From a virus (Duplodnaviria > Caudoviricetes), in the IMG/VR virus record IMGVR_UViG_3300037424_002275, positions 1 to 44,209 of that record: a stretch of DNA of 44,209 bases; one strand, written 5' to 3'. A program made the position numbers and the translations under genes. Under the pieces are notes generated by a model. It ran no database searches, was not told the origin of the DNA, and worked only from the letters and a program-made list of their open reading frames with translations. Positions 6,623 through 42,032 of this stretch are shown in pieces (position 1 is the stretch's first letter; the number at the start of each line of letters is the position of its first letter).

Positions 6623-7072
6623 TTAATGCAGAGCCTTGAGGGTGTCGTGGAGCTTGCGACGACGGTTACGCTCATAAAGAGCATGACAGCTTAAATGATA
6701 AAAGCTGGTTCCATTTTGCTTTACTTTTTTTATAGAATCATACTCCTTGCAAAAACAACATCTACGCCAATCAGCATGCCCGCAAGCCTTATGTGCTCTG
6801 GTCCTTTGCTCTAATAGCATGTGATAAGCATTATCCTGACAAATCACTAAAGGACCATTGTCTTTAGAGCCATTGGCATGATGTACGGCCGCTCTCTTAG
6901 GCAGCGGTTTGCCAAATGCTTTTTCAGCAATAAGAATATGCTCGAACACATATCCTCTGCTATCCGCTCTTGAATGATGAGGCATATGAATTTGAACATA
7001 GCCGCGGCCGTGAATTTTGCATCCACCTTTCCAATTTGGATTGTTCGAACCGAATTGGTCTGCTTTTGCCAT
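6623..7072 (-). CDS. HNH homing endonuclease
   Basis: NPNWKGG, GYVFEHILIAEKAFGKPL, VHHANG..DN..LVIC..H; AT-richer than neighbours. Confidence 0.85.
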   Translation of the reverse strand: MAKADQFGSNNPNWKGGCKIHGRGYVQIHMPHHSRADSRGYVFEHILIAEKAFGKPLPKRAAVHHANGSKDNGPLVICQDNAYHMLLEQRTRAHKACGHADWRRCCFCKEYDSIKKVKQNGTSFYHLSCHALYERNRRRKLHDTLKALH

Positions 7073-11634: not shown

Positions 11635-12030
11635 CTATAGCCCGTACTGCTGATTTATGCAGACGAATCCTGTCGTGGTTTCTCCTTGATGCTCGAACCG
11701 TTCCCGAACCTCGTCCTCCCAGCGATCATCACCCGCAAAGCATTGGTCGTACCCGGGTTCTCTCGGGAGAAGCTGGACCATTTTGCCCTTGCGGAAGGCG
11801 ATAGCGTAGAGATCCTTGAGCGGGTCTCTTGTGTCCGGGTTCCACCACCTGGCGTCGGGGTCCAGGGTGACCGGCGCCCCGAAGCCCGGCTTCTCTTTCA
11901 GCTCCTCCCCTTTGCCAGTTTGCCATTTCTCGAAGCTGACGGTGAAGCGACAAACCCAGCAGCTACACGGCCCTTGGACGATGTGAATCCAGCCGTTGCA
12001 ACCGCATTTAATCATTCTCGAAATCTTCAT
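11635..12030 (-). CDS. Cys-containing hypothetical protein
   Basis: AGGAGGT RBS before MKISRMIKCGC. Confidence 0.6.
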   Translation of the reverse strand: MKISRMIKCGCNGWIHIVQGPCSCWVCRFTVSFEKWQTGKGEELKEKPGFGAPVTLDPDARWWNPDTRDPLKDLYAIAFRKGKMVQLLPREPGYDQCFAGDDRWEDEVRERFEHQGETTTGFVCINQQYGL

Positions 12031-12082
12031 GGCACTACCTCCTTGAAATGAAGGGGGAGCCGGGCGACTCCCCCAGGTTGGA

Positions 12083-12661
12083 TTAGCGGCGATACTGTGG
12101 GTTCGGGTTGGGCGTCGACGGGACGGTCCAGACCAGGACCGGCTTGCCCAGGCGCTTTGCAATCTCCATCGTATGGGCCGTCCCCTTGCTCACTCCATCC
12201 CATAGGGCAGCCACCCGATCGCAGCACATGACCATCTTCCAGTTGCGGGCGAACCCAGCCGCCCCTTTCAGGATCTCCCAATCTTCGGCCGTGACTTTGT
12301 AGACTTCCGTCTTACGACCGTATTTCTCGGACAGGATATGATGCGCCAGAGCGTCGACGCCCGCGGCCCCACCCGAGATGAAGATGGTATTGCGGGGATA
12401 GAGCTCTATCAGGTGTTGTACGAAGCAGGCTGCCAGGTCGTACTCCCAGTGTGCCCGGGAACCGGTGACCAGGACCCGGAGAGCCGGTGTCGGGGGCGCA
12501 GCAGGCTCAGGCGGCGGGGCAATCGAGATCACCGGGCCATGCGTGACTTCACCCGAGAATTCACAGGTATTGACGTCCGGACATTCCATGCAAAGGGTAT
12601 TCGGATGTTCACAAACTCCAGAAGCTTCAACTCCATGCTGATTTCCCATGACTTCCTCCAC
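12083..12661 (-). CDS. YspA/DUF2493-like SLOG-family protein with Cys-rich N-terminus
   Basis: RVLVTGSR, FISGGAAGVD, AGFARNWKMV, WDGVSKGTAHTMEIAKRLGKPV; AGGAGGT RBS before GTG 12661. Confidence 0.85.
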   Translation of the reverse strand: MEEVMGNQHGVEASGVCEHPNTLCMECPDVNTCEFSGEVTHGPVISIAPPPEPAAPPTPALRVLVTGSRAHWEYDLAACFVQHLIELYPRNTIFISGGAAGVDALAHHILSEKYGRKTEVYKVTAEDWEILKGAAGFARNWKMVMCCDRVAALWDGVSKGTAHTMEIAKRLGKPVLVWTVPSTPNPNPQYRR

Positions 12662-13227
12662 GACGGTTTCACCTCCTACCGACAAGGCCAGATTAACAGA
12701 ACCACCACACACACAGTTTGCCCGAGAGCTCGTTGGTCTTAGGCCAGCATAATGACGGCTTCATTCGATACGGGCGATAGAGTTGGACAAGGTGAGCTGT
12801 GTGTGTGTGTGCGAAGTAATAGCGACCCCTGGCATAGGACGTACACCTTTTCATGGTTTTACTGGCAGTTGGGCCGGGCCTTTCGGCCTTACTGCCATAA
12901 ACCAGGATTAGAAGGTGTAGTCGTAGGCCAGAGAGGAGCGGTAAATCTTTGGCTTTTGGTGGAAGGAGGGAAGTACGGACTTGTTAGACTCCTTGAACGG
13001 TCCGTACTTGCTGTGGAAGACATTGAATTATGCCGAAGCATGACCGACTGGAACCATTTTGCCCTGCCGGAGGCACCTTGCCCGCTTCGGGCCATTTCAG
13101 ATTGCAGTGCCCCGCCGAGTGCTTCCCTGGCCAATGAAGGGGGCAGGGGTGACCCCTTCTTGGCCTTGGGAATTAGCAGGAGGCGGGATAATTTTAGATT
13201 GATTCCGCCCTGCCGGAGGCCAATGTC

Positions 13228-13269
13228 AGATTTAGGCTTTTCATTTTAGATTTAGGCTTTTCATTTTAG
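13228..13269. repeat. 20-bp tandem duplication
   Basis: AGATTTAGGCTTTTCATTTT x2 plus partial copy. Confidence 0.9.
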
Positions 13270-13357
13270 TTTTCATTCGCCTTGAGTCATCATTCCAGTA
13301 GCCCACTGCTCTCCACGACACTAGTTCTCTTTAAAGACCATCATCAAAATCGTTCGC

Positions 13358-13392
13358 AAAAAAAGAAAGGCCCTGATCCGAAGACCAGGGCC
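13358..13392 (-). terminator. Intrinsic terminator with cUUCGg tetraloop
   Basis: GGCCCTGGTC-TTCG-GATCAGGGCC-TTTCTTTTTTT on the - strand. Confidence 0.85.
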
Positions 13393-13399
13393 CCAACCG

Positions 13400-13537
13400 C
13401 TACTCCTGCAGGCCTTCCATGACGTCAGCTATGTACTCAGCCGTGTACTGACCTACGGCGTTCCCCACGTAAGCCGCAGAAGAGAACAGAACCACCAACC
13501 CCACGATAGCCACGAGAACCATCCGAAACGAGAACAT
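13400..13537 (-). CDS. 45-aa single-pass membrane peptide (not in ORF track)
   Basis: GGAGGT RBS; MFSFRMVLVAIVGLVVLFSSAAYVGNAVGQYTAEYIADVMEGLQE; terminator follows immediately. Confidence 0.7.
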   Translation of the reverse strand: MFSFRMVLVAIVGLVVLFSSAAYVGNAVGQYTAEYIADVMEGLQE

Positions 13538-13567
13538 GATCTACCTCCAGAGAGAGTTACGGGCCCT

Positions 13568-13877
13568 ACCAGGCCCGGACACGAAGCGAGCAGACAGCGG
13601 GAGGCACCGGGACCCCAAGAGCCCCCAGCCGCCACCCAGGACGCAACACCGCACAGGCACAAGCGAGACAGGACGAAGGCCCCGACACCCGAAAACGACG
13701 ACCACAACAAGGACAAAGGCACGAGAACACAGCAGCACCCCCAGCACGAGAAGCCCCGGAGCCGAACCAGCCCCGAACCGACAGGCGCTGCCCAAGCAGC
13801 ACGAGAGGAGGGGAAAAGCAAGGCGCCGGACCGAAGGGAGGCCGGCGTAGGGGGGAGCACCGACCCAGGAGCGAGCC
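13568..13877. other. T-free (+) / A-free (-) tract
   Basis: No T in 13568-13788; only two T (13789, 13848) in 310 nt. Confidence 0.97.
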
Positions 13878-14202
13878 TTACTTGTGACGGTGGATATTTA
13901 CGACTGAGTTTCCTTTACGGCCAGACCGCGGCGGGCGGACCCCCGGAGACCGCTTGGCCTTGCTTTTGCCCCGACGGCCCGTGATACAATTGGGCGAGCA
14001 GGCGGGCGGGCTTTGCTTTTGCAAGGGCTATCAAGCCCGGAGCCGGGGGGGTCCGGGGAGCGGCTGAGCGCCCCCGGGTTTTTGATCTATCGCGTGTCCA
14101 TGCAGGAAATAGTTCCGACATTCCTCTGAAGCCAGACACTTCAAGGCCTCGATGCTTCCCTACACAGCAGGAGCGCCGAGTACGCTTTTCGAGGAAGACT
14201 GT

Positions 14203-14310
14203 CAACCAAGAGAAACAAGAGGGCAAAGAGGGGGGCGGGGGGAGAACGGAGACGCGGGGAGGGGGACCCCGCGCCGGACCCCCGGGGGGGGCCAGGAGGG
14301 GGGCCGAGAC
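14203..14310. other. Second T-free (+) tract, G-rich
   Basis: 108 nt without T. Confidence 0.93.
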
Positions 14311-14998
14311 TCCACGCCTCCTGGGGCGCACAAAGGGGGGGCTCGGGGGGAGCTCCCCCCCTTAGAGCTTTTCACCTCAGAAAAAGCTTGTGGATGGAAT
14401 ACCTATGCAGTTGATTACCGCAGGCCCCGGACTAAGGGGGCCGGAGGACCGGGAGCGCAGAACACATTAGCTCCAATGCAGATAGAGTCTCCTGCGTAGC
14501 AGAAGCCAACACCTTTGCCACGGAGCCAGGTGGGTAGGGTTACGTTCTCTGTTTATCGTCCACACATAGGGCATGCACACATAGAGCACCCATGCACAAG
14601 GAAGGCAACAAACACACAGGTGAGCTATCATCTCACCATATGAGTATCCTATGCCCTCTGTCCTCATCGCCAGCCAAGGGGAGCACCAGACACCCCCACC
14701 CCTATTACCTTCAATCTTTCTTCTCCTCCAATATTACCTACCCAGAAATTTTAAAATTCCTGCCATCCCCCTCCTCTAGGAAGAAAACACCCCTAAGAGT
14801 AAGGACAGGTGTAGTTCTCCCGAGGTGACCAATTTGCCTCTAGGAAGACCAGGAATAATTCTGGAATATTTCGCACCCTTTTCACACCTGGATCGAGCCA
14901 TCTGAGTCCAATAAAAGGGAGAAAAGACGTGATTTGTCCAAGAAAGTGCGGAAAAGGCATGAATTGTCCAGAAGCGTCATTATTTTGACACTTTTTTC

Positions 14999-15027
14999 TT
15001 GACAGGGTTATAGGGTGCAGGTAGAGT
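14999..15027 (+). promoter_or_regulatory. Sigma70 promoter upstream of the late operon
   Basis: TTGACA-17 nt-TAGAGT, preceded by a GTCA-N6-TGAC palindrome. Confidence 0.7.
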
Positions 15028-15077
15028 TAAATCACTCCGTTTGACACCTTTTGCCGCAGCACCGCCGCCGCAGTAGC

Positions 15078-15120
15078 AAGCCCCCCGGGAGTCTGGGCAA
15101 CTCTCGGGGGGTTATTTTTT
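15078..15120 (+). terminator. Intrinsic terminator in the late leader
   Basis: AGCCCCCCGGGAGT...ACTCTCGGGGGGTT-ATTTTTT. Confidence 0.8.
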
Positions 15121-15382
15121 GACCATATTGCTGACATCGGCAAATGGTGTCTCCATCCCACTTTCCTTGATTCCGAGCTCCGGATTTTACCTCTTCCTGG
15201 AAGTACCTCATCCCACTTTGCCATGAATAAACGACCTGGCCCACGGGGTCACGATCCACTTGTTCAGATTATGAAACATGATGTGTTGGAATATTGACGC
15301 TATGTGTCAGTATTTTGTCAATACGTCAAATTATTGACGATTTTTCTTGACAGAAGTGTAAGGTTATGTTTTCAGTAAGGGC

Positions 15383-15871
15383 ATGGCGCGGAAACGAGAA
15401 GACGACAAGAATTGGGCAGACCGTGGGCGGATAGATTTCCACCGCTGTTACAACGAAGCGGAGGGGTACTATCTGGCCGGACTCTCTTTGGATGAGATTT
15501 CCGAGCGGTTATCGCTGGACCTGGAGCGTCTTCGTGATTGGGAGAAGGAATACCAGTGGAAAGCGAAACGGGCAGCGATGATAACGAGTCCCCGGGGAAT
15601 TGGGGCGATGTTGCGAGAGCGCCTGCAGCGCCAGATGGAAAAAATGTCAGCATCGACGGGGGACCTGGAGGTTGACGAAGTAAAGAAGATCACGGAGTTG
15701 ACCTTGTTAATCAACAAGACTGAGGGAGCGGGGGGCAATGTTCTGGCGGCGATGGTGGAGGTCCTGAGGGATTTCAGCCGGTACTTGCGGGAGCACATTG
15801 GGGACCGGGACCAATACCATCTTGTCTCATCCTGGGTGCAGGAATATTTGAGGTCAAAAACAGACGTCTAG
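15383..15871 (+). CDS. terS: Terminase small subunit (HTH, DUF1804/Mu-like)
   Basis: GLSLDEISERLSL..LRDWEKEYQW HTH; upstream of TerL. Confidence 0.75.
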   Translation: MARKREDDKNWADRGRIDFHRCYNEAEGYYLAGLSLDEISERLSLDLERLRDWEKEYQWKAKRAAMITSPRGIGAMLRERLQRQMEKMSASTGDLEVDEVKKITELTLLINKTEGAGGNVLAAMVEVLRDFSRYLREHIGDRDQYHLVSSWVQEYLRSKTDV

Positions 15872-15874
15872 AGA

Positions 15875-16345
15875 TTGGAAAAACTTATGGGAAGACCAAA
15901 AGGATCAATAGGTAGAAACAGATTGTCTTTGGAACCCCTGAATCCATCTGGATTATGTTTTTGTGGTTGTGGCCAAAGAACTCCAATAGCACAGCAAGGT
16001 CTCAAGAGAGATCAGTGGGTTAAAGGCCAGCCAATCAGATTTATCCCAGGCCATCAGAAGAGAAAACCAGAAGGCAACAAATTCATTAATCGTGAAGGGT
16101 ATGTGCTGGTAAAACAGACCGGTCACCCAAGATCAGACAATAGCGGTTATGTTTTTGAACATGTTTTGGTTATGGAAAAAGTTTTAGGCAGACCAATTTT
16201 ATCAACAGAGGCGATTCATCATATTGATGAGGTTCGTCACAATAATGATCCTGGCAATCTTATGTTATTTGCCAAACGTGGAATGCATTCGGGGTTCCAC
16301 AGAGACCTTGAATTTCGAACCAAGATGGAGAGTGCCGATGTGTGA
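15875..16345 (+). CDS. HNH homing endonuclease
   Basis: LCFCGCG, RFIPGH, GYVFEHVLVMEKVLGRPI, IHHIDEVRHNNDPGNL. Confidence 0.88.
   Translation: MEKLMGRPKGSIGRNRLSLEPLNPSGLCFCGCGQRTPIAQQGLKRDQWVKGQPIRFIPGHQKRKPEGNKFINREGYVLVKQTGHPRSDNSGYVFEHVLVMEKVLGRPILSTEAIHHIDEVRHNNDPGNLMLFAKRGMHSGFHRDLEFRTKMESADV
16151..16257. repeat. 107-bp identical segment shared (inverted) with 39942-40048
   Basis: Base-by-base match of the HNH core coding sequence. Confidence 0.9.
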
Positions 16346-16613
16346 CCGGAGAGAACCCTTTCCTGACCCCCATGGGTCACCCTTTACTGGGGTCATGGGG
16401 CCGGTGGAGGTACAGGATCTGGAGCCTCACGAGATCAACCTGACGATCTCCGCTATCCAGAGGCGGCTTTACTCCCTGGCGAAATTGGGTATCCCGGCTT
16501 TGGAGAACGTGATGGATCTGCCCCTGGAGGCGTTTTACCCGCATTGTCAGGCTGAGGTCGCAGTCCTGCAGAAGGCCGGAGAGAAACTTTGCCGATTGAA
16601 TATGGAGCTTTAG
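16338..16613 (+). CDS. Hypothetical protein
   Basis: GGAG RBS before MCDRRE; overlaps both neighbours. Confidence 0.55.
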   Translation: MCDRREPFPDPHGSPFTGVMGPVEVQDLEPHEINLTISAIQRRLYSLAKLGIPALENVMDLPLEAFYPHCQAEVAVLQKAGEKLCRLNMEL

Positions 16614-18214
16614 AGAACAAGTCTCTGAACAAAAAACTCGGCAAGGCAGCCTTTCGGCGTCAGGCAGAGGAAATTTTAGGAATTCTGCGGAGCGAGTACG
16701 ACCCCTTCAAGAACGACACTCCGGAAGAACAGAAGCGGCGAAAACACCGGGCCCTGAGTGACCCGTTTTTCTTTTTACGGACCTACCTGCCGCACTACTG
16801 CCCGAACAAGTTTGCTCCCTTTCATTATGAGTTGGTGGCAGCCCTGGAGCGCCGGCCGACCCTGGGGGACTCCGCGGTGGTCCTGCCGGTGGCGAGGGTG
16901 GCCCCCCGGGACTTCGCTAAAACCACGATCACCTCCTTTGGCTACGTCCTGCATCAGATTTGTTTCAAACTGAGGCACTTCATCGTCCTGACGTCCGACA
17001 CTCAGGATCTCGCTTCTGACCTTACGGGTTACATCTACCTGGAGCTCTGCTTCAACGAGCGCATCAAGCATGATTTTGGAAAACTCGTGCGGGATAATTG
17101 GGCAGTGGAGGCCTTCACGACCCTGAACGACGTGCGCATCCTCTCCAGGGGCAAGGGGCAGCGGTTCCGGGGTATCAAGCACAAACAGCATCGCCCGGAC
17201 CTGATCATCCTGGACGACCTGGAAAACGACGCCAGCGCCCGGAACCCAAAGCGGTGTGACGACCTGCTCAGGTGGATCAAGGGGACGGTCTACAACGCTA
17301 TCGATCCCCGGGGCAACCTGTTCATCGTGGGCACGCTTCTGAGTCAAAAAAGCGCCCTGGCGAGCATCGCCCTATCGAAAGATGAGCCGTTTTGTCATTG
17401 GGACCGGAAAGTCTACCGGGCGATCACAGACGAAAACGAATCTCTCTGGCCTGACAAGTTCCCCATGGAAATGCTGGAAGAACAGCGGCTGATGATGGGG
17501 ACCGTGGCTTTCAACCGGGAAAAGATGAATTTCCCCGAACAAGAAGGCGGTTACTTCCGGGATGAGTGGTTTCAATACTACACCGTTGACGATTTGATCG
17601 ACGTTGATGGTAAACCAAAAGAACTTCTGGTGTGCTGTTGGTTTGACCCCTCACTTGAAACCGGTTCCCAACACGACTTTAAAGCCTACGTTACAGTGGG
17701 CTACTCACAGGCCGAAAATATTTTCTACTGTCTGGACGCCTATATCAAGCAGGTTAGCCTTGAAATTGCCGTGCAACTCTCTTTATCGCTGCACCTGATC
17801 TATAAATTTTTAGTCCTGGGCGTAGAGTCCAACCTATTCCAACGCCTGCTCATCAAAGAATTCGATGCTGTAGCTAAAAAAGCAGGTGTGCCGTTACCAG
17901 TGCAGGGGATAGTCAATCATCTGAACAAGGAAGTTCGGGTAGCGGGACTATCCCCTTTGGTGGAGCGGGGGCAGATTAAATTTCGCAAAGGGCACTCCGA
18001 TCAAGATTTGCTGGTAGAGCAACTTTCCTTTTTCCCCAACAAATCCTTTCACGATGATGGCCCCGACGCCCTGGAAGGGGCGGTACGGCTGGCGACTTCC
18101 TTTGCATTGCCAATTATAGACGTGGTGGTGCTTCCTGACCGGCGTTCATATCGTCCCGGAGCCTACAAGGAATACACTAGCTTTGATGGAGTAGCCCAAG
18201 GAGTGATCCATTGA
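16589..18214 (+). CDS. terL: Terminase large subunit
   Basis: APRDFAKTT Walker A, RPDLIILDDLE Walker B, VGT coupling motif, FDPS and HDDGPDALE nuclease motifs. Confidence 0.93.
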   Translation: MPIEYGALENKSLNKKLGKAAFRRQAEEILGILRSEYDPFKNDTPEEQKRRKHRALSDPFFFLRTYLPHYCPNKFAPFHYELVAALERRPTLGDSAVVLPVARVAPRDFAKTTITSFGYVLHQICFKLRHFIVLTSDTQDLASDLTGYIYLELCFNERIKHDFGKLVRDNWAVEAFTTLNDVRILSRGKGQRFRGIKHKQHRPDLIILDDLENDASARNPKRCDDLLRWIKGTVYNAIDPRGNLFIVGTLLSQKSALASIALSKDEPFCHWDRKVYRAITDENESLWPDKFPMEMLEEQRLMMGTVAFNREKMNFPEQEGGYFRDEWFQYYTVDDLIDVDGKPKELLVCCWFDPSLETGSQHDFKAYVTVGYSQAENIFYCLDAYIKQVSLEIAVQLSLSLHLIYKFLVLGVESNLFQRLLIKEFDAVAKKAGVPLPVQGIVNHLNKEVRVAGLSPLVERGQIKFRKGHSDQDLLVEQLSFFPNKSFHDDGPDALEGAVRLATSFALPIIDVVVLPDRRSYRPGAYKEYTSFDGVAQGVIH

Positions 18215-39697: not shown

Positions 39698-39876
39698 CCA
39701 GTAGCCCCCCTTTTTTTATCCTTAAGCCATGTTTCAATTTCTTCCGCATCGAACCGCACGCACCGCTCTATCTTATAGTGCGGTATCACACCCCGGCGCA
39801 CCCAGGAAAAAACGGTAACTGGGGGCACGCCGAGTTTTTTGGCCAAATCCTTAGCCGAGATTAATTGCAGGTCCAT
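39694..39876 (-). CDS. xis: Excisionase (HTH_17)
   Basis: LISAKDLAKKLGV..TVFSWVRRGVIPHYKI..VRF. Confidence 0.88.
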   Translation of the reverse strand: MDLQLISAKDLAKKLGVPPVTVFSWVRRGVIPHYKIERCVRFDAEEIETWLKDKKRGATG

Positions 39877-40324
39877 TGCTCCATCCCTTCAAGCCACCAT
39901 GAAATCTCGTATGCATTACAATTTTAGCAAACAACATTAGGTTGCCAGGATCATTATTGTGACGAACCTCATCAATATGATGAATCGCCTCTGTTGATAA
40001 AATTGGTCTGCCTAAAACTTTTTCCATAACCAAAACATGTTCAAAAACGTATCCCCCAACGGCTCTTGGATGATCTGGACTATGTATTTTTACATAGCCA
40101 GTTTTATGAATAAACCTTCCTCCTTTCCACTGAGGATGATTTTCACTATTGTGGTTGTGACCATTAACAAACCGCATATGTTGACCCTTCACGATGCCCT
40201 TTCTTGAATCATTTTTAGGGGCGATTGCAGTTCTTTGGCCACAACCACATTCACATAAGCCTGGCGTCACCTTGGGTACGCAGAGACGTCTTGCCAGTTC
40301 TTCGGGAGAAATTAACTGCGTCAC
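39851..40324 (-). CDS. HNH homing endonuclease
   Basis: LCECGCG, HPQWKGG, GYVFEH..IHHIDEVRHNNDPGNL. Confidence 0.88.
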   Translation of the reverse strand: MTQLISPEELARRLCVPKVTPGLCECGCGQRTAIAPKNDSRKGIVKGQHMRFVNGHNHNSENHPQWKGGRFIHKTGYVKIHSPDHPRAVGGYVFEHVLVMEKVLGRPILSTEAIHHIDEVRHNNDPGNLMLFAKIVMHTRFHGGLKGWSNGPAINLG

Positions 40325-41639: not shown

Positions 41640-42032
41640 TTATGCAGCTTTTCTTCTTTCAAAAGCTGTGTGCATGGCGGTTGTAGCAAAAACCATTAAA
41701 TTGCCAGGCACATTATTTTTCTTTTTACCATCAATATGATGTACTGCTTCTGAAATCAAAATAGGACGGCCCAGGGCTTGTTCGGCTACCAAAATATGTT
41801 CAAACACATATCCTTTTTTATCGGCCCTGTGGTGCCCAGGTTGATAAATAACAATATAGCCACCCCTTAATTGTCTACCACCTTTCCAGCCCGGATGATC
41901 TTTGCCCGACCTTGCACCCCCGCTATGACCTTTAATAAAACGCAAAGACTGACCTTTAAAAATCCCATATTTTGTGAAAGTACGATCAGCTATTCGGGTT
42001 TCTCGACCACAACCGCATCCACATTTTGCCAT
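41640..42032 (-). CDS. HNH homing endonuclease
   Basis: CGCGCG, HPGWKGG, GYVFEHILVAE, VHHIDGKKKNNVPGNL. Confidence 0.88.
   Translation of the reverse strand: MAKCGCGCGRETRIADRTFTKYGIFKGQSLRFIKGHSGGARSGKDHPGWKGGRQLRGGYIVIYQPGHHRADKKGYVFEHILVAEQALGRPILISEAVHHIDGKKKNNVPGNLMVFATTAMHTAFERRKAA

Follow-up and report, generated by a model that had tools for sequence, protein, structure and literature searches.

A 310-nt phage tract nearly devoid of adenine on one strand, with a diverged and apparently equally adenine-free copy in a relative

Several described systems approach the locus reported here, each from a different side. Mobile elements are known to drop the letters that a host weapon reads, as in the avoidance of restriction palindromes and of the substrates of Csx1 and CmdT; here, however, what one strand lacks across hundreds of non-coding nucleotides is an entire base, not a motif. 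DGRs and the engineered DGRec are adenine- and strand-specific, gain C, G and T evenly and, by overwriting themselves, would leave an adenine-free copy. The natural template repeats of DGRs nevertheless keep their adenines, and our locus differs from them in that neither a reverse transcriptase nor a variable-repeat partner was found in this genome, in its greater length, and in diversifying no detectable protein. Type I toxin-antitoxin modules (zorO-orzO, ldr-rdl; in the available text of PMC3919570) are alike in combining a small hydrophobic ORF, a long leader, a terminator and a small RNA, here a candidate, with short complementarity to the leader, whereas in our case there is no sequence family match, the peptide is net negative, and the likeness is one of layout. 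The small hydrophobic ORF with a ribosome site that is expected of type I modules is present (45 aa, hydropathy 2.5, found in 2 other clusters). We know of no type I toxin-antitoxin leader that lacks a base, and the tract is unexplained by known systems. No description of adenine-free tracts was found in a literature that was mainly open-access and available at abstract level, and in the accessible part of a paper on leading-region composition (PMC13478746) the word 'adenine' occurs 0 times.

The DNA analysed here (the window; 44,209 nt, to which all positions refer) is a full viral record whose ends are direct repeats; it represents a circular temperate phage of 44 kb that encodes an integrase, TerL, a portal, a protease-capsid protein and a lysin as well as an AAA_24 protein. 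On one side of the tract are leftward early genes (SLOG, SSB, DUF932 and ParB), on the other a rightward packaging module. Downstream of the tract on the minus strand is the SLOG (YspA/DprA-like) gene (12083-12649; PF02481/PF10686 below cut-off, phrog_289), which is ordinary in composition (20.2% A, normal GA content). On the plus strand, a probable small terminase gene, terS (15383-15871; weak PHROG match), lies 1.5 kb to the right of the tract and is followed by TerL (16589-18214; strong PHROG match), whose relatives at ~50% sit, in 7 of 9 loci, in genomes named Desulfobaccales or delta proteobacterium, a loose pointer to the likely host. Four related HNH endonuclease genes are also present (6623-7072, 15875-16345, 39851-40324 and 41640-42032); two of them share a 155-nt inverted repeat at 92%, and the one between terS and terL is missing from L002, the closest terminase relative (TerL 89%). 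TTGACA-containing promoter-like repeats occur upstream of terS at 14993-15016 and 15341-15364, with a terminator-like hairpin between them, and both repeats are kept in L002. Left of the cassette, 12713-13340 appears to be a long non-coding region; it holds a 20-nt tandem repeat, runs of (GT)n/(CA)n and several hairpins, is partly conserved in L002 (600-1650, 77-80%) and may be a structured RNA or an origin.

Base counts confirmed what an earlier note on this DNA had reported: 13568-13788 (221 nt) contains A72 C87 G62 T0 on the plus strand, and the whole of 13568-13877 (310 nt) has just 2 T, at 13789 and 13848. Read on the minus strand, the 310 nt are G111 C101 U96 A2, evenly over codon positions, and the tract is thus a real adenine-free minus-strand stretch. 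The probability of such a run by chance is about 1e-20, about 3e-20 one-base-free runs of such length are expected in the window when all bases and both strands are counted, and none of 100 dinucleotide shuffles gave a T-free run of at least 120 nt; the claim that chance is negligible therefore stands, although the T content, put at ~20%, is actually 23.4% over the whole window. The other one-base-free runs are far shorter (108 nt without T at 14203-14310, then 58 without T, 56 without G, 50 without A and 42 without C). The tract is complex, as had been noted, and not a simple repeat: C, G and U are near-even, dinucleotide bias is mild, and a repeat search found no long internal repeat family in it. 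That 13568-13788 is stop-free in all six frames is a by-product, since stops need A or T. Neither Rfam 15 (gathering score) nor ARAGORN (tRNA/tmRNA) gave any match in the window. A Logan contig from run X1, possibly the window's own sample and so not independent, is identical across 12000-16180, and a 172-nt contig from run X2, which belongs to a different study, is identical across 13668-13839; zero tract variants were seen among these contigs, which drop rare variants.

The depletion is broader than the 310 nt: six minus-strand segments within 13367-14345, delimited by eye, sum to 638 nt with 14 A. Between them stand short A-containing islands, namely the C-terminus of a small peptide gene, its ribosome site, a 39-nt island, a segment X with a promoter-like site, and 14079-14202. 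Leftward on the minus strand, the order is an A-rich island of 39 nt (13916-13878, 44% A) that bounds the tract's 5' side, the tract itself, a G-C hairpin at the tract's 3' edge (13560-13578, matched by eight identical residues in the relative described below), a Shine-Dalgarno sequence GGAGGT (13543-13548) 5 nt ahead of an ATG, a 45-aa ORF (13537-13400), and an intrinsic-terminator-like hairpin of 12 bp with a U run (13394-13367, from a terminator scan), which would close a leftward transcript. The adenine-free strand is hence the sense strand of the adjoining peptide gene, and the ORF and terminator are where the earlier note had placed them, with the tract ahead of both. Upstream of these elements, 14203-14345 on the minus strand is another tract poor in adenine: its 143 nt hold 4 A and include the 108-nt run without A. 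This tract is G-run-rich on the plus strand and, positioned downstream of a rightward promoter-like site, might promote R-loops or G-quadruplexes. A short motif, GGCC(C)GT(A/G)A, flanks the main tract on its two sides at 13921 and 13565 (minus), is found again at the promoter-like site (13975-13983, plus), and is a possible regulator site.

The 45-aa product has one predicted transmembrane helix (hydropathy peak 2.5 over 19 residues) and an acidic tail, and its charge is net negative. It has no family in Pfam, PHROG, NCBIfam or PADLOC; its homologues, P0002 (84%) and P0003 (73%), are two other clusters, and a profile search of representatives returned the window's own peptide as its sole match. 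Adenine is unevenly spread along the ORF, with 3 A in the first 22 codons and 18 in the last 24, and optional third-position A occurs in 0 of the first 22 codons vs 3 of the 23 C-terminal codons (P=4e-4 at the tract's rate).

The single informative relative is P0005, a 333-aa gene call on a 36.9-kb contig that was clustered with the peptide homologue P0003. It reads across DNA homologous to window positions 14080-13412, as judged from exact words in colinear order, and its W-R-W is compatible with the GGAGGT. Counting ten residues as needing A in their codons, 0 of 169 residues at positions 113-281 need one vs 39% of codons in intergenic frames of the window (P about 1e-36), P0005 being seen as one translated frame in which third positions are invisible. 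Over 81 aligned tract codons (57+24), the window and P0005 differ at 23; none of these changes calls for an added A, and at 13789 one of the two A of the window's tract is replaced in P0005. For comparison, 73 of 113 differences involve A in the flanks common to the window and L002. A segment near 13790-13710 is present twice in P0005, read in two frames, and the tract extends to ~500 nt there vs 310 nt in the window. These comparisons suggest that adenine avoidance is maintained rather than frozen, as it has persisted through a duplication, frame shifts and the change of roughly every third residue. The related phage thus appears to keep a longer, diverged and equally adenine-free copy and, on this evidence from translated sequence, the tract is real and maintained in at least two lineages. 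The earlier note had named free tolerance of A or T at homologous loci as grounds for abandoning its reading; on the contrary, the P0005 locus does not tolerate adenine freely.

Protein coding was considered for all six frames and rejected, because openness follows from the missing A/T stops and P0005 shifts frame. No Pfam match at E<=10 was obtained for three minus frames, the plus ORF or P0005, matches in the Atlas were all < 0.9 or unusable, and the structure model of P0005 has a pTM of 0.18. As P0005 reads the same DNA in two frames, models poorly and belongs to no family, the tract does not seem to be protein-constrained and is probably non-coding; and if the copy is non-coding and duplication-tolerant, a nucleotide constraint can be separated here from protein constraints, something that adenine-free genes do not allow. 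The substitution spectrum in the tract (C-T 9.5, G-T 7, C-G 8.5, A-G 1) does not part selection from mutation, because its baselines disagree.

Outside these two lineages, the tract was not recovered. L002 shares 13063-13340 and 14692-15872 with the window, and does so without the tract or the peptide. No tract was present at the matching place upstream of TerL in any of the 17 loci that reach > 3 kb, L002 included, and none of 36 TerL-related loci (17 of them reaching > 3 kb upstream) has a one-base-free run > 88 nt. Two T-poor patches, one of 88 nt in L014 and one of 61 nt in L017, are rich in G and A and have no blastn similarity to the tract; the former adjoins a (GATC)n tandem run of ~36 nt (L014 1237-1275). 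Searches of phages and plasmids found no DNA copies of the tract by blastn and no DNA homologue of it by tblastn with P0005. Three exact window stretches sought in viral contigs gave nothing, and queries with the peptide, TerS and SLOG in viral contigs gave no further tract copy. Metagenome-contig queries likewise gave no further copy, one search returning L002's contig alone. The tract was also absent from 401 genomes of the likely host phylum, from five viral records and, save for one 29-nt chance match, from five TerL-bearing genomes. No adenine-free locus was seen among 21 PF02481 loci from five genomes or in five plasmid regions, and no adenine-free ORF of the SLOG/DprA type was found here (no Pfam match at E<=10 for three minus frames or P0005; the SLOG gene is 20% A). 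Judged by this distribution, the cassette is accessory.

The explanation that we tentatively prefer, at rather less than even confidence, is that selection keeps the tract adenine-free as the likely body of a non-coding RNA, which would be spared by an adenine-directed attack on single-stranded RNA. We infer that the tract is transcribed: a leftward RNA would carry it as a non-coding body and end in the 45-residue membrane-peptide gene. The attacking agent might be an adenosine-specific RNase of the Csx1 kind or an adenine modifier resembling CmdT; in the text available, Csx1 cleaves ssRNA after adenosines (PMC4712672) and CmdT modifies the adenine in GA of ssRNA (PMC11618068). The useful product would then be the surviving 200-500-nt G/C/U RNA, for instance an uncuttable decoy, and the peptide and an opposite-strand small RNA may form a type I toxin-antitoxin-like module around the tract. 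The free length (310 vs ~500 nt) suits a product whose bulk matters, and together with the free sequence and the indifference of the coding tail to A it fits selection on RNA; the tract also heads the leftward early region. Against this, the ribosome site holds GA and the C-terminal half of the peptide keeps its 3 optional A in 23 codons; depletion is found on both sides of a rightward promoter-like site and need not be one RNA; residual adenines are not more paired than controls (0.56 vs 0.48-0.58, with 3 of 12 controls higher); L002 does without the tract; and the tract is shown by one relative only, via one translated frame. Nor did any leftward sigma-70 promoter upstream of the tract pass the promoter scan, which leaves the 'first-expressed' RNA of the earlier note conjectural; at 14205-14177 (minus), a perfect TTGACA spaced 17 nt from a poor -10 is the sole candidate seen for a leftward promoter that would span the whole cassette.

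The earlier note is partly supported: the tract is real, it lies ahead of a leftward peptide gene and terminator, and a homologous locus is not free in its use of A, but several of the suggested purposes were weakened. With optional A in the peptide's coding end and ordinary A and GA content in the SLOG gene, not all of the message is shielded, an argument against both ATP sparing and plain mRNA protection. The sparing of ATP/dATP is further at odds with a transcript whose ribosome site and start codon themselves need A, as do 18 of the final 71 bases of coding sequence; translation, moreover, consumes ATP anyway. Simple protection of the mRNA is disfavoured by the same 3 of 23 C-terminal codons (P=4e-4) and by the SLOG gene (A 20%, GA ordinary). 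The idea of an unstructured template fares no better, as neither strand of the tract folds in a way that sets it markedly apart from shuffled sequence (z +1.75, +1.28 and +0.26).

Composition and substitution spectrum fit the main, mutational rival equally well. This rival, which we regard as possible though doubtful, is a ratchet in which a DGR-type adenine-mutagenic reverse transcriptase, acting in trans from the host or from a co-resident element, copies this RNA into cDNA that recombines back into the RNA's own locus; each round would turn A into C, G or T and never restore it, A would stay where function needs it, and the tract would be an exhausted template and not an adaptation. The C/G/T fractions match an even redistribution of A (chi-square p=0.58), but simply forbidding A predicts the same composition (p=0.58), and the tract's G-C and G-T exchanges do not clearly exceed the baselines. 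A is indeed retained in islands that look functional and reappears gradually toward the 3' side, and the phage encodes SSB, DUF932 and AAA_24 proteins. As reported in the part of the source available, the RNA locus of an engineered DGR overwrites itself, with 85.5% of mutations at adenines and mostly mid-template (10.1101/2025.03.24.644984). However, no reverse transcriptase was found among the 70 window ORFs scanned with Pfam and PHROGs, several of which are without a family. With A treated as neutral and without gaps, no template/variable partner was detected in the genome (14 and 16 vs 15-17 for five shuffled tracts), and a repeat of the template/variable type was also missing from the repeat search of the window. 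Usual DGR template repeats are shorter than the affected ~1 kb span.

Selection at the level of DNA is, in our view, unlikely. It would hold that thymine is kept out of the plus strand because that strand is single-stranded, near the packaging site, at entry or during replication, and so open to thymine-directed modifiers such as DarT; DarT, however, recognises short motifs and not every T. The depletion does cover ~1 kb whatever the predicted transcripts, and it lies 1.5 kb from terS. Clusters of GCGNAGC, which we take to be a mini-hairpin motif, occur upstream of TerL in relatives (6 in L002 and 9 in L003 within 4 kb), whereas the window has just 2 such motifs in 4.5 kb. With no one-base-free run > 88 nt in any of the 36 TerL-related loci, 17 of which reach > 3 kb upstream, this is no general packaging feature of the clade. 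The GCGNAGC clusters themselves (L002 1150-2400; L003 300-900; and L010, L018, L022, L029-L031 and L036 at 1.6-2.6 kb upstream of TerL) are intergenic, with some recurring spacings (57 and 147 nt), and may be ssDNA hairpins or binding sites.

Still less probable, we think, is that the tract is a regulatory leader only, in which removal of A would rid the message of AUG and Shine-Dalgarno sequences and of A-rich sites where ribosomes or nucleases land, and so keep the message of a putatively toxic peptide silent in type I style. The layout is indeed like that of zorO-orzO (in the available text of PMC3919570), with its small hydrophobic ORF, long leader, predicted paired ribosome site (GGAGGT is mostly paired in the folding model), long-range stem and candidate complementary small RNA on the opposite strand. 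The stem would join the A-containing segment X (13957-13971, minus) to segment Y within the tract (13810-13824), to which it is complementary at 14 of 15 positions (inverted repeat I3), with a mean pairing probability of 0.53 or 0.91 according to where the 5' end is placed. An extended -10-like site, TG-n-TACAAT (13982-13990, plus), points away from the tract; it was read by eye and is absent from the promoter scan's output, and P0005 residues 41-54 fix its TG, TA and AA and not its last T. It is followed by a candidate 90-nt small RNA (13996-14085, plus; repeat D11), which would end in a G-C stem and U run near 14083, carries a near copy of segment X's complement and has a flank conserved in P0005 residues 8-19. 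Silencing, however, takes the loss of a few motifs and not of 300-500 adenines. Nor does the leader fold better than its shuffles do (z +1.19), and the small RNA and its duplex are marginal (fold z -0.89, not significant; core duplex with the leader -32 kcal/mol, an energy that 6 of 200 shuffles reach).

Strand-specific A-to-G deamination, which in ssDNA yields such one-strand asymmetry, and an assembly or low-complexity artefact are both largely refuted and highly improbable, the former because it predicts ~50% G where 36% is observed (p=6e-6 vs the neighbouring intergenic background), the latter because X1 and X2, from two studies, give identical sequence at the level of contigs and a diverged homologue exists. 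Two further candidates were rejected: restriction-site avoidance, since an A-free strand loses A/T-containing palindromes while G/C-only sites stay (GGCC 3, CCGG 5 and GCGC 2 in the tract) and 300 nt would protect little, and thymine-dimer avoidance, since the opposite strand is pyrimidine-rich.

Both leading readings, selection on RNA and the ratchet, are new. Were the ratchet true, an adenine-mutagenic reverse transcriptase would edit RNA beyond its own cassette and leave a readable scar, and such scars would mark unknown retroelement activity in genomes. If selection is instead the cause, a phage would escape an RNA attack aimed at one base by giving up that letter, and the tract would serve as a direct assay for a host weapon that reads adenine. 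In a broader form that we consider a long shot, phages may make G/C/U RNA whose sole fixed property is to have no adenine, an uncuttable and unmodifiable early decoy for adenosine-specific immune RNases and RNA-modifying toxins, which would make it the non-coding side of a widespread counter-defence that works by dispensing with adenine.
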